The notes under the pieces: model-generated | What the model saw: only the letters and a program-made list of their open reading frames with translations | Told to the model about the DNA's origin: nothing | The model's database searches: none | Part shown: positions 10,128 to 20,064 of the stretch, one piece after another | Layout of the letters: every line of letters begins with the position of its first letter | How positions within the stretch are numbered: the stretch's first letter is position 1 | NCBI RefSeq assembly: GCF_003334385.1 | Contig: NZ_QOWN01000033.1 | Reading direction: 5' to 3' (one strand) | Length of the DNA: 48,307 nt | Source of the DNA: Escherichia coli | GTDB taxonomy: Bacteria > Pseudomonadota > Gammaproteobacteria > Enterobacterales > Enterobacteriaceae | Made by a program: the position numbers and the translations under genes

Positions 10128-10227
10128 ATGCCGGATGCGGCGTGAACGCCTTATCCGGCCTACAAGTTCGTGCAAATTCAATAAATTGCAATATGACGTA
10201 GGCCTGATAAGCGTAGCGCATCAGGCG
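10128..10227. repeat. REP/BIME cluster of RIP type: two inverted REP units flanking an IHF-like site
   Basis: GCCGGATGCGGCGTGAACGCCTTATCCGGCCTACA ... CAAATTCAATAAATTGCA ... GTAGGCCTGATAAGCGTAGCGCATCAGGC. Confidence 0.8.
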
Positions 10228-10255
10228 ATTCCACTCCGCGCCGCTCTTTTTTGCT

Positions 10256-10573
10256 TTAGTATTCCCACGTCTCCGGGTTAATCCCCATCTCACGCATGAT
10301 CTCTTTTGCCGCTTCCGGGATTTCGTCGCTGCGCTCTTTACGCAGATCGGCATCATCCGGCAAAGGTTGCCCGGTAAAGGCATGCAGAAACGCTTCGCAC
10401 AGCAGCTCGCTGTTGGTAGCGTGACGCAGGTTGTTCACCTGACGACGCGTGCGTTCATCGGTGAGGATTTTTAACACCTTAAGAGGAATGGAAACCGTAA
10501 TCTTTTTGACTTGTTCACTCTTCTTGCCGTGCTCAGCGTATGGGCTGATATATTCGCCGCTCCATTCAGCCAT
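10256..10573 (-). CDS. metJ: Methionine repressor MetJ (105 aa)
   Basis: ORF contains [45 protein letters not shown]...; canonical start internal to the track ORF. Confidence 0.95.
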
Positions 10574-10761
10574 GAGATACTTAATCCTCTTCGTCAATAA
10601 ATTGAGACCAGACCACACAGTTGATGTGGGTACTGACCGTAAACCCGCATAGTTTACCGTACAGGCGTTACCGTGACATCGTGTAATGCACCTGTCGGCG
10701 TGATAATGCATATAATTTTAACGGCTATTTGGGATTTGCTCAATCTATACGCAAAGAAGTT

Positions 10762-10790
10762 TAGATGTCCAGATGTATTGACGTCCATTA
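10762..10790. promoter_or_regulatory. MetJ operator (tandem met boxes) in the divergent metJ/metBL control region
   Basis: Tandem 8-bp repeats TAGATGTC CAGATGTA TTGACGTC resembling the AGACGTCT met-box consensus. Confidence 0.6.
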
Positions 10791-10849
10791 ACACAATGTT
10801 TACTCTGGTGCCTGACATTTCACCGACAAAGCCCAGGGAACTTCATCAC

Positions 10850-12010
10850 ATGACGCGTAAACAGGCCACCATCGCAGTGCGTAGCGGGTTAAATGACGAC
10901 GAACAGTATGGTTGCGTTGTCCCACCGATCCATCTTTCCAGCACCTATAACTTTACCGGATTTAATGAACCGCGCGCGCATGATTACTCGCGTCGCGGCA
11001 ACCCAACGCGCGATGTGGTTCAGCGTGCGCTGGCAGAACTGGAAGGTGGTGCTGGTGCAGTACTTACTAATACCGGCATGTCCGCGATTCACCTGGTAAC
11101 GACCGTCTTTTTGAAACCTGGCGATCTGCTGGTTGCGCCGCACGACTGCTACGGCGGTAGCTATCGCCTGTTCGACAGTCTGGCGAAACGCGGTTGCTAT
11201 CGCGTGTTGTTTGTTGATCAAGGCGATGAACAGGCATTACGGGCAGCGCTGGCAGAAAAACCCAAACTGGTACTGGTAGAAAGCCCAAGTAATCCATTGT
11301 TACGCGTCGTGGATATTGCGAAAATCTGCCATCTGGCAAGGGAAGTCGGGGCGGTGAGCGTGGTGGATAACACCTTCTTAAGCCCGGCATTACAAAATCC
11401 GCTGGCATTAGGTGCCGATCTGGTGTTGCATTCATGCACGAAATATCTGAACGGTCACTCAGACGTAGTGGCCGGCGTGGTGATTGCTAAAGACCCGGAC
11501 GTTGTCACTGAACTGGCCTGGTGGGCAAACAATATTGGCGTGACGGGCGGCGCGTTTGACAGCTATCTGCTGCTACGTGGGTTGCGAACGCTGGTGCCGC
11601 GTATGGAGCTGGCGCAGCGCAACGCGCAGGCGATTGTGAAATACCTGCAAACCCAGCCGTTGGTGAAAAAACTGTATCACCCGTCGTTGCCGGAAAATCA
11701 GGGGCATGAAATTGCCGCGCGCCAGCAAAAAGGCTTTGGCGCAATGTTGAGTTTTGAACTGGATGGCGATGAGCAGACGCTGCGTCGTTTCCTGGGCGGG
11801 CTGTCGTTGTTTACGCTGGCGGAATCATTAGGGGGAGTGGAAAGTTTAATCTCTCACGCCGCAAGCATGACACATGCAGGCATGGCACCAGAAGCGCGTG
11901 CTGCCGCCGGGATCTCCGAGACGCTGCTGCGTATCTCCACCGGTATTGAAGATGGCGAAGATTTAATTGCCGACCTGGAAAATGGCTTCCGGGCTGCAAA
12001 CAAGGGGTAA
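10850..12010 (+). CDS. metB: Cystathionine gamma-synthase MetB (386 aa, PLP-dependent)
   Basis: ORF contains MTRKQATIAVRSGLNDDEQYGCVVPPIHLSSTYNF...; start ATG at 10850 chosen over the long upstream in-frame extension. Confidence 0.95.
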   Translation: MTRKQATIAVRSGLNDDEQYGCVVPPIHLSSTYNFTGFNEPRAHDYSRRGNPTRDVVQRALAELEGGAGAVLTNTGMSAIHLVTTVFLKPGDLLVAPHDCYGGSYRLFDSLAKRGCYRVLFVDQGDEQALRAALAEKPKLVLVESPSNPLLRVVDIAKICHLAREVGAVSVVDNTFLSPALQNPLALGADLVLHSCTKYLNGHSDVVAGVVIAKDPDVVTELAWWANNIGVTGGAFDSYLLLRGLRTLVPRMELAQRNAQAIVKYLQTQPLVKKLYHPSLPENQGHEIAARQQKGFGAMLSFELDGDEQTLRRFLGGLSLFTLAESLGGVESLISHAASMTHAGMAPEARAAAGISETLLRISTGIEDGEDLIADLENGFRAANKG

Positions 12011-12012
12011 AA

Positions 12013-18193: not shown

Positions 18194-18202
18194 TCTGACC
18201 CC

Positions 18203-18241
18203 GTTCAGCGGCTGCTTGCTGGCAGTCGCTGAACGTTCTTT
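18203..18241 (+). terminator. Intrinsic terminator after katG
   Basis: GTTCAGCGGCTGC-TTGCT-GGCAGTCGCTGAAC hairpin followed by GTTCTTT. Confidence 0.55.
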
Positions 18242-18285
18242 ACCAGCGTATAGTGGGCGAACGAAAACTACACACTGGATCTCTC

Positions 18286-19191
18286 ATGTCTGCCGCAGGA
18301 AAGAGCAACCCACTGGCAATCAGTGGCCTGGTTGTGCTCACACTTATCTGGAGTTATAGCTGGATTTTCATGAAGCAAGTCACCAGTTACATCGGTGCCT
18401 TCGACTTTACCGCCTTACGCTGCATTTTCGGCGCTCTCGTTTTATTCATCGTCCTTTTATTACGTGGTCGCGGAATGCGCCCGACACCGTTTAAATACAC
18501 CTTAGCCATTGCCCTGTTACAAACCTGCGGGATGGTTGGTCTGGCGCAGTGGGCGTTGGTCAGCGGAGGTGCGGGGAAGGTGGCGATCCTGAGCTATACC
18601 ATGCCGTTCTGGGTGGTGATTTTCGCCGCGTTGTTTCTCGGTGAACGCCTGCGACGTGGGCAATATTTCGCGATTCTGATTGCCGCTTTCGGCTTATTTT
18701 TGGTGTTGCAGCCGTGGCAACTCGATTTCTCTTCGATGAAAAGTGCCATGCTGGCAATCCTCTCCGGCGTCAGTTGGGGGGCGAGCGCGATTGTTGCTAA
18801 ACGTCTGTATGCCCGTCATCCGCGCGTGGATTTATTGTCGTTAACATCCTGGCAGATGCTGTATGCGGCGCTGGTGATGAGTGTGGTCGCTTTACTGGTG
18901 CCGCAACGTGAAATTGACTGGCAGCCCACCGTGTTCTGGGCGCTGGCCTACAGTGCGATTCTGGCGACGGCACTGGCGTGGAGCTTATGGTTGTTTGTAT
19001 TGAAAAACTTGCCTGCCAGTATTGCCAGCTTAAGCACACTGGCCGTTCCCGTTTGCGGCGTACTCTTTTCCTGGTGGCTGCTCGGCGAGAATCCGGGGGC
19101 CGTTGAAGGTAGCGGTATTGTGCTGATTGTGCTGGCACTGGCGCTGGTGAGCCGTAAGAAAAAAGAAGCCGTCAGTGTAAAAAGGATCTGA
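18286..19191 (+). CDS. yijE: EamA/DMT-family inner membrane transporter YijE (301 aa)
   Basis: ORF contains [30 protein letters not shown]...; multi-TM protein with two EamA-like halves. Confidence 0.9.
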
Positions 19192-19217
19192 ATTTTTTCT
19201 TCATGTGGGGCGATCTC

Positions 19218-19835
19218 TTATTTAACAAAATAACGATAATGCCCCACCATCCGCCAGTTAAACAGCACATCTTCTTCCTGCGCGCCTGCGCCAATGTTAT
19301 GTATCACCAGCGGCGTACCGTCGCGGGCGAAGCCATCTGAAACCACCCCAATATGTGCCAGCCCGTTATCCAGTCGCCAGGAGACAATATCGCCCGCTTG
19401 ATAGTCACTGGGGTTCTTGCTGGTGGGGCGTGTTTTATCATGGCGGCTAAACCAGGTTTCCAGATTAGGCACCCGACGGTGATCGATGTTGCTGTCCGGG
19501 CGCTTTAACTTCCATTTTTGCGGGTACTCAGCAAAATTCTTCGCCATATCTTCGTGAACCAGTTTCTGCAAATCGACCTTCTGGCTGCGCAATGCGCGGA
19601 TCACCACATCGGAACATACACCGCGTTCTTGCGGAACATCACCGCCAGGATAAGTAAGCTGCACATACGCCGGATCGTAAAATAGCGTGCTGCCAATTTG
19701 CTGTCTGGCACCGTCTGCGATGGCAAGGTTGGTATTGGCCTGGATTTGTACCACGGTTGGTGGAACGGCGGGAGATTTTAAGGAGTGGCTGGTAAATGCC
19801 GTTAGCAGGCTGAGCAGCGCCAGTGAAGCTTTCAT
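19218..19835 (-). CDS. yijF: YijF, exported protein of unknown function (205 aa)
   Basis: ORF MKASLALLSLLTAFTSHSLKSPAVPP... with signal peptide. Confidence 0.88.
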   Translation of the reverse strand: MKASLALLSLLTAFTSHSLKSPAVPPTVVQIQANTNLAIADGARQQIGSTLFYDPAYVQLTYPGGDVPQERGVCSDVVIRALRSQKVDLQKLVHEDMAKNFAEYPQKWKLKRPDSNIDHRRVPNLETWFSRHDKTRPTSKNPSDYQAGDIVSWRLDNGLAHIGVVSDGFARDGTPLVIHNIGAGAQEEDVLFNWRMVGHYRYFVK

Positions 19836-19965
19836 CTGGTTCGTCCGTGAAAATAAGAGTCACAGATTCGACCTTCCGGGCTAACGATTGTTCTGTAGAG
19901 AAAATGTCCAGAAGCGGATAAAAAATTCCTGAACAACGTGGGAGTTTCAGATTACTGGCACAGAG

Positions 19966-20064
19966 TGCCGGATGCGGAGTGAACGCCTTATCCGGCCTAC
20001 AAAAGCACGCAAATTCAATATATTGCAGAGATTGCGTAGGCCTGATAAGCGTAGCGCATCAGGC
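19966..20064. repeat. REP/BIME cluster of RIP type, near-identical in architecture to the one at 10128-10227
   Basis: TGCCGGATGCGGAGTGAACGCCTTATCCGGCCTAC ... CAAATTCAATATATTGCA ... GTAGGCCTGATAAGCGTAGCGCATCAGGC. Confidence 0.8.

Follow-up and report, generated by a model that had tools for sequence, protein, structure and literature searches.

The stretch of DNA analyzed here, hereafter the window, comprises 48,307 nucleotides of Escherichia coli contig NZ_QOWN01000033.1 and spans glpF to murI, a segment of a K-12-type chromosome. Eight REP units are found in it, forming four pairs. Two of these pairs are the subject of this study: element A, between metJ and yiiX, and element B, between gldA and yijF, with 9,837 bp from one start to the other. 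Both are extragenic and lie at a gene 3' end: A begins 30 nt past the stop codon of metJ and B 46 nt past that of gldA, both on the minus strand, which is the one transcribed. The next gene in this direction, yiiX after A and yijF after B, follows each element. In the copy of the NC_000913.3 annotation that we used, the region of A and B holds CDS and ncRNA features only, and no REP or RIP entries.

On the plus strand, element A consists of a y-type REP (10129..10163, TGCCGGATGCGGCGTGAACGCCTTATCCGGCCTAC, with the conserved GTAG tetranucleotide on the minus strand), a 34-nt L linker (10164..10197) and a z1-type REP (10198..10226, GTAGGCCTGATAAGCGTAGCGCATCAGGC). Element B, in the same orientation, is made of a y-type REP (19966..20000), a 35-nt L linker (20001..20035) and a z1-type REP (20036..20064), again GTAGGCCTGATAAGCGTAGCGCATCAGGC. 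An IHF-like core is present in both linkers, as ATTCAATAAATTG at 10176-10188 in A and as ATTCAATATATTG at 20013-20025 in B; in NC_000913.3 these cores correspond to about 4,127,998-4,128,010 and 4,137,835-4,137,847. Beyond the arms, the sequences of A and B differ. A has an external left flank (10103..10128, plus strand) that includes a small hairpin, ACAACG-TGCT-CGTTGT, at 10110-10125 and fits the family left-flank consensus GACAAAGTGCGCTTTGTT. B has a right external flank, AATTTTGCGTT (20065..20075, plus strand), common to the pitA/uspB RIP and the family consensus, next to which lies an 11-bp G+C-rich hairpin (20076..20102, minus strand) directly 3' of the gldA stop codon, transcriptionally upstream of B and devoid of a U-run.

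BIME-1/RIP elements were first described between 1991 and 1994; the name RIP reportedly goes back to Oppenheim et al. in 1993, and RIB to Boccard and Prentki in 1993. They are defined by a z1 and a y REP, a single copy, and a long, well-conserved L linker in which an IHF site is frequent (Ton-Hoang 2012, PMC3333891). A and B each contain one y and one z1 REP in inverse orientation, stand as a single unit per locus with no tandem array, and carry a long L linker with no mismatch to the 19-nt family core. The common core GCAAATTCAATAWATTGCA occurs exactly in A and B only within the window, for a chance expectation of 0.01 per window when up to 3 mismatches are allowed. The initial annotation had placed two clusters at yiiX/metJ and yijF/gldA and called them RIP-type BIMEs with an IHF-like linker: the gene names are correct, the coordinates right within 1 nt, and the classification is borne out by the y and z1 arms, the L linker and the single copy. 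We consider it very probable that A and B belong to the enterobacterial BIME-1 family (RIP, for repetitive IHF-binding palindromic element, or RIB) as independent copies that are not orthologous to each other. They are ordinary, typical BIME-1 copies, of an element type that is already known.

The two other REP pairs of the window are of another kind. A BIME-2-type pair between yijO and eptC (30607..30693, plus strand), which serves as a comparator, is made of a y REP, a short linker and a z2 REP, and a BIME-2-type unit between ppc and argE (35525..35624, plus strand) of z2, linker and y; MG1655 has three such units at ppc-argE vs one in the window. As the initial annotation had stated, neither has the IHF-like spacer: their linkers are different ones, with no L core. 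The features of BIME-2, namely z2, a short S linker and tandem repetition, are found at these two sites and not in A or B. Gyrase binding had been among the roles suggested for dispersed repeats of this sort; the published record of cleavage by gyrase concerns BIME-2 rather than BIME-1. A third RIP, in reversed orientation and decayed, lies in the metL-metF spacer (14462..14562, minus strand); an L-like core (3 mismatches) is left at 14500-14518, the y REP, at about 14527-14560, is degenerate, and what may remain of a z1 REP lies at about 14464-14490.

We examined how closely A and B resemble each other. They had been described as near-identical, and this holds for the REP arms, identical at 63 of 64 positions (y 34/35, z1 29/29), but neither for the linkers (25/35, 71%) nor for the whole elements (88/99, 88.9%). 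Unrelated, that is non-orthologous, RIP pairs within one genome have a mean identity of 83-90% among the matches listed, and the values for A and B fall within that distribution. Within-genome pairs at least as similar as A and B make up 12-17% in Escherichia and about 70% in Pseudocitrobacter, again among the matches listed. In K-12, A (90.9%) and B (93.9%) both resemble the pitA/uspB RIP, at a distance of 498 kb, more than they resemble each other. The pairwise alignment, named beforehand as a possible refutation of a special relationship, hence goes against it: judged by these alignments, A and B resemble each other no more than RIP family members do generally. An E. albertii locus with a linker much like that of B was suspected to be an orthologue; BLAST shows neither yijF nor gldA adjoining it, so that it is not orthologous to B.

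Equal orientation and architecture, a spacing of 9,837 bp and the near-identity of the arms might suggest that A and B arose by a recent local duplication, or were homogenized by gene conversion, and that they act as direct repeats for deletion or duplication of the 9.8-kb metJ-metBLF-katG-yijEF block. In addition to the similarity values above and the unlike outer flanks, the distribution of the two copies argues against this: A is missing from half of E. coli genomes and at least 85% of them carry B, and the two therefore have different histories. Rearrangements between A and B in related genomes had been proposed as a check, and the corresponding recombinant junction, yiiX-RIP-gldA, did not turn up in a search of 5,426 complete E. 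coli genomes. A single hybrid, in strain PEC240 (NZ_CM168014.1), has a yijF-RIP-uspB junction; the reciprocal pitA-gldA junction was likewise not found, and this singleton may be a misassembly or else a RIP×RIP recombination. Altogether, a special relationship between A and B appears extremely improbable. This negative outcome is useful in itself, as the pair is neither a duplication nor a recombination hot spot.

We then placed the linkers within the wider family. An unbiased scan for y...z1 pairs across 100,044 species genomes yielded at least 142 pairs, at least 90 of which, among the matches listed, have a linker of 33-36 nt; the L core is found with at most 4 mismatches in at least 75 of these. 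From 59 in-register linkers of four genera, among the matches listed, the consensus AAAATCGTGCAAATTCAATATATTGCAGAAACCTT was derived, which the A and B linkers match. Its peak of information content is ATTCAATATATTG, in agreement with the IHF consensus WATCAANNNNTTR at 12 of 13 positions. Likewise, in both elements the linker core ATTCAATAWATTG agrees with WATCAANNNNTTR at 12 of 13 positions (8 of the 9 specified). The departure is a T for A at position 2, shared by 50 of the 59 family linkers, and neither the A nor the B linker contains an exact match to the strict consensus. According to the literature, IHF binds BIMEs or RIBs located at 3' ends of transcription units; the text of the IHF ChIP-seq paper of Prieto 2012 does not mention REPs and gives no site list. 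IHF binding and effects on RNA 3' ends are properties of the family, taken from the literature, which A and B may share.

The linkers also match a small RNA family, Rfam RF02751 (ES036, or CssrF), with 39.6 bits for A, above the gathering score of 37.6, and 34.8 bits for B, just below it. Could each linker then be the gene of a functional ES036/CssrF-like small RNA? A 43-nt RNA has indeed been detected by RNA-seq from the linker of the phr/dtpD RIP. That linker is itself the seed locus of ES036 in K-12, where promoter evidence is lacking, and the ES036 authors suggested a processed 3'-UTR fragment. Moreover, the Rfam-sense strand at A and B is the plus strand; the metJ and gldA transcripts run opposite to it, and a search for promoter-like sites on it gave none at either element. 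Finally, compensatory change in the 5-bp stem proposed for ES036 is nearly nil across the 59 linkers, most departures breaking a pair. Small RNA genes at A and B are therefore very unlikely on sequence grounds, and the match to ES036 is the RIP repeat under a second name.

Copy A is polymorphic. The site is filled in 2,713 of the 5,426 complete E. coli genomes, and the block missing from empty-site genomes, about 124 nt long, comprises the external flank 10103..10128 together with y, L and z1. It interrupts the metJ terminator hairpin (10091..10252, minus strand), whose two arms are near 10241-10252 and 10091-10099. In the empty allele, as in O157 or ATCC 25922, these arms join as GAGCGGCGCGGAGTTAACCAGCCGCTTTTTT, giving an intact hairpin followed by a T-run; in the filled allele of K-12, they close a multiloop that encloses the RIP hairpins, and a consensus terminator scan detected no canonical terminator at A or B in this strain. 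Where it is present, in about half of the complete genomes, the block occupies the loop of the intrinsic terminator of metJ and looks like an insertion of this repeat family. An exact look-up of MetJ/L31 for outgroup alleles of the yiiX-metJ spacer listed 20 places, all E. coli-like and with both alleles represented; because none is a true outgroup, insertion, and not deletion, at site A is what we infer. One could go further and propose that a complete RIP entered the single-stranded loop of the terminator hairpin recently, within the species, to give copy A. This would perhaps reflect a general preference of BIME-1 elements for the loops of terminator hairpins, by hairpin-directed, single-strand insertion as used by the REP-associated Y1 transposase. 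We regard this extended scenario as rather unlikely. If it were true, the roughly 50:50 filled and empty alleles would constitute a natural experiment on whether termination and metJ-yiiX read-through are rewired by a RIP.

From the family literature, the following can be proposed. At the DNA level, IHF would bind and bend the linker core. At the RNA level, the element would be co-transcribed in the 3' UTR, where its two REP hairpins could slow 3'-to-5' decay or attenuate read-through. As to its spread, the RIP family would move as a small non-autonomous repeat. Alternatively, A and B may be neutral passengers: selfish repeats that the cell tolerates in intergenic DNA 3' of genes, any IHF binding or RNA effect being incidental and having no phenotype. 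Copy A is dispensable, being absent from half of the genomes, copy B is swapped for an unrelated repeat in some strains, the third copy in the metL-metF spacer is decayed, and a dedicated Y1 transposase acts on REP/BIME sequences (Ton-Hoang 2012, PMC3333891). On the other hand, the 59 linkers, compared across genera, are most conserved in the L core, which suggests selection on the RIP family as a whole. We consider neutrality possible, though on the doubtful side; it agrees with the assignment of A and B to BIME-1 on what the elements are, and differs on consequence only. Within that assignment, what is new is the presence of A in half of the genomes, within the metJ terminator loop, the replacement of B by another repeat in some strains, and the decayed third RIP. 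The polymorphism of site A in a terminator loop offers a handy natural test case for the effects of RIPs on termination, mRNA 3' ends and IHF-dependent DNA bending.

Compared with known systems, A and B share with BIME-2 the y REP and the alternating orientation of REPs, and differ from it by having z1 and not z2; the linkers of BIME-2 are short and variable and lack an L/IHF motif, and its copy number changes from strain to strain. The ES036 model consensus AAAUUUGUGCAAAUUCAAUAAAUUGCAGGAAAUACGUAGGCCU covers the L linker and runs into the first bases of the next REP, and both A and B align with it from end to end; ES036 is however a transcript fragment of one RIP, phr/dtpD, and the strand that matches in A and B lies antisense to local transcription. 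With respect to REPIN/RAYT (TnpAREP) systems, the window contains no tnpAREP gene and site A has no visible target-site duplication, but A and B are inverted REP pairs with GTAG, and site A shows a presence/absence polymorphism. Inverted REPs with GTAG are the recognized substrate form of the REP-associated Y1 transposase (Ton-Hoang 2012, PMC3333891). The closest likeness is to BIME-1/RIP/RIB. The external flanks are different fragments of those of the family, A keeping only the proximal left hairpin and B a truncated left flank with 11 nt of the right one; the y and z1 REPs, the 34-35-nt L linker with its IHF-like core and the position on the 3' side of a gene are the same, with no difference in the core of the element.

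The window is a K-12-type E. coli chromosome segment, glpF to murI, with at least 99.9% identity to MG1655 (NC_000913.3; coordinate there = window + 4,117,822, valid up to ~35.6 kb). Element A occupies the metJ-yiiX spacer, bounded by the stop codon of metJ at 10256 and the start codon of yiiX at 10072; element B occupies the gldA-yijF spacer, bounded by the stop codon of gldA at 20110 and the start codon of yijF at 19835. The minus strand carries all four genes. Both elements, as well as their positions in the initial annotation, are real: arms and linkers could be read directly from the sequence, as a y REP (10129-10163), linker (10164-10197) and z1 REP (10198-10226) in A, and a y REP (19966-20000), linker (20001-20035) and z1 REP (20036-20064) in B. 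They have the same orientation and are spaced by 9,837 bp. A 19-nt core, GCAAATTCAATAWATTGCA, is found exactly at A and B and nowhere else in the window, and 0.01 matches with up to 3 mismatches are expected per window of shuffled sequence. Across the window, the REP-arm pattern detects eight units, forming four pairs. The other two pairs, 30607-30693 (yijO/eptC) and 35525-35624 (ppc/argE), are of the y+z2 type, with other linkers and without the core GCAAATTCAATAWATTGCA, in agreement with the remark that they lack the A/B-type spacer. A third RIP, decayed and in the opposite orientation, was noticed in the metL-metF spacer (14462-14562). It aligns to intact RIPs along its whole length, with an L-like core at 14500-14518 (3 mismatches) and an adjoining degenerate y REP; its hairpin may be a z1 remnant.

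Two other features of the window were observed. The ppc-argE spacer (35524-35627) holds a BIME-2 of one ~122-bp unit, versus three tandem units in MG1655; the window is thereby 244 bp shorter, the sole length difference across 48 kb, IS end aside. Bases 1-76 are not glpF, which abuts from base 77, but the terminal part of a multicopy insertion sequence. Its annotation elsewhere reads 'IS4-like element IS421 family transposase', and we take it to be IS186-like. Among 5,426 complete E. coli genomes, the junction between this IS end and glpF was absent.

Feature by feature, A and B fit the published definition of a known repeat family, BIME-1 or RIP, and their initial classification as RIP-type BIMEs was correct. 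BIME-2 elements consist of y+z2 units repeated in tandem, and their linkers are short and variable (Ton-Hoang et al. 2012, PMC3333891). The linker consensus, derived from 59 distinct in-register linkers, is AAAATCGTGCAAATTCAATATATTGCAGAAACCTT, and its best-conserved stretch, ATTCAATATATTG, agrees at 12 of 13 positions with the IHF consensus WATCAANNNNTTR; neither the A nor the B linker matches this consensus exactly. Binding of IHF to RIP elements has reportedly been described by Oppenheim et al. Since compensatory change is almost absent from the palindrome TGCAA...TTGCA among the 59 linkers, a DNA motif is a better fit than an RNA stem.

Are A and B specially related? They had been described as near-identical, which holds for the REP arms (34/35 and 29/29 identical positions) but not for the linkers (25/35, 71%) or the whole elements (88/99, 88.9%). 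To place this value, one genome from each of 100,044 species was scanned with the anchor pattern CCGGCCTAC N{20,50} GTAGGCCTGATAAG, leaving the linker unconstrained. At least 120 loci and at least 142 y...z1 pairs were found, the loci listed coming mainly from E. albertii, an E. coli strain, Pseudocitrobacter and Kosakonia. Among the pairs listed, at least 90 had a linker of 33-36 nt, and in 75 of those 90 the L core was present, with no more than 4 mismatches. Mean identity between RIPs of the same genome was 84.2% in E. albertii (28 copies listed), 83.1% in E. coli SCPM-O-B-8794 (9 copies) and 90-91% in two Pseudocitrobacter genomes (18 copies each), with an identity equal to or above that of A and B in 12%, 17% and ~70% of pairs, respectively. 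For the linker alone, the A-B identity was reached by 40-86% of within-genome pairs of the RIPs listed. Moreover, the pitA/uspB RIP of K-12, at a distance of 498 kb, has 90.9% identity to A and 93.9% to B, and shares with B the right flank AATTTTGCGTT. The A-B identity thus lies inside the within-genome range of the RIPs listed, and a closer relative exists: A and B are two ordinary members of one repeat family rather than a pair duplicated or homogenised, and the suggested unusual likeness is not supported. Nor did the search for rearrangements support a proneness of A and B to recombine, the yiiX-RIP-gldA junction expected as a remnant of such an event being found in 0 of the 5,426 complete E. 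coli genomes.

Both sites vary in the population. Element A is present in 2,713 of the 5,426 genomes. The metJ-yiiX spacer measures 183 nt in filled genomes, versus 59 nt in sampled unfilled ones, O157:H7 strains and ATCC 25922 being examples of the empty site. The empty allele, AAAAGAGCGGCGCGGAGTTAACCAGCCGCTTTTTT, is a hairpin followed by a T-run (ΔG -21.6 kcal/mol, z-score -3.6). At the K-12 site (window 10091-10252), a 124-nt block composed of 6 nt, z1 + L + y, and a 29-nt flank with a hairpin ACAACG...CGTTGT lies within the loop of this metJ terminator hairpin; in the predicted fold the outer stem and U-run are kept, enclosing a multiloop of REP hairpins. We infer that the block was inserted into a terminator already in place, a probable rather than proven direction. 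The filled or empty state largely tracks two haplotypes, ~5% apart in priA and yiiX at the sampled loci, a high divergence for E. coli.

Element B is present, at 80% query coverage or more, in 4,589 of the 5,426 genomes. In strain RM14516 and others like it, exactly the element B interval of the yijF-gldA spacer (locus L124 of RM14516, ~480-670) is occupied by another repeat, G+C-rich (CCCCTCTCCCCTTTGGGGAGAGGGTTAGGGTGAGGGG...) and presumably resembling a Box C-type repeat, which exceeds the replaced interval by ~55 nt. Strain PEC240, alone among the 5,426 genomes, has a yijF-RIP-uspB junction (locus L126, 1680-1860), with a RIP that is hybrid between B and the pitA/uspB copy. Either RIP×RIP recombination truly took place here or the assembly is wrong; the reciprocal pitA-gldA junction is found in none of the 5,426 complete E. 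coli genomes, so that a misassembly may be involved.

The Rfam family RF02751 (ES036/CssrF) scores 39.6 bits on A (gathering score 37.6) and 34.8 bits on B. The RNA that defines ES036 is a 43-nt fragment from RNA-seq, for which promoter evidence is absent (Rau et al. 2015, PMC4676190). Allowing for a 776-bp coordinate shift between genome versions, its locus coincides exactly with the L linker of the RIP at phr/dtpD (NC_000913.3 740987-741029; locus L149, 108-150), and the family is therefore the RIP linker by another name, modelling a dispersed DNA repeat. The strand matched at both A and B runs antisense to local transcripts, and no promoter-like site was found on it. For these reasons, the matches were rejected as sRNA genes.

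A and B lie 3' of metJ and gldA, on the transcribed strand, with strong predicted REP hairpins in both transcripts (z-scores -4.5 and -5.6). By analogy with the family literature, IHF would bind and bend the L linker, and the REP hairpins would stabilise or attenuate the upstream mRNA; copy A is dispensable. As for DNA gyrase, also proposed initially among the functions, the elements with documented targeting are BIME-2 rather than BIME-1 ones (Sutormin et al. 2019, PMC6379681).

A and B thus belong to a known repeat family, whose flanks beyond the REP arms are also partly conserved: among 75 RIPs, the left consensus is ...CAGATTGCTGACAAAGTGCGCTTTGTTCT and the right one AATTTTGCGTTTGTCATCAGTCTC, which we take to be the external motifs given when BIMEs were first described. 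Relative to these, A lacks the right flank and carries, on the left, the proximal hairpin; in B the left flank is truncated and the right one is present over its first 11 nt, so that the two also differ in the flank fragments they carry. Enterobacterial-type REP pairs were also seen in assemblies from unrelated phyla, a 262-bp contig of Desulfosporosinus sp. OT (L032), with a perfect L core, and a Bacteroidales MAG (L080); these are most likely contaminating enterobacterial DNA. Finally, whereas BIME-1 has been described as single copy, tandem y-L-like-z1 arrays were seen, of four units with 147-148-bp spacing at an E. albertii locus (L007) and of two units at another locus (L031).
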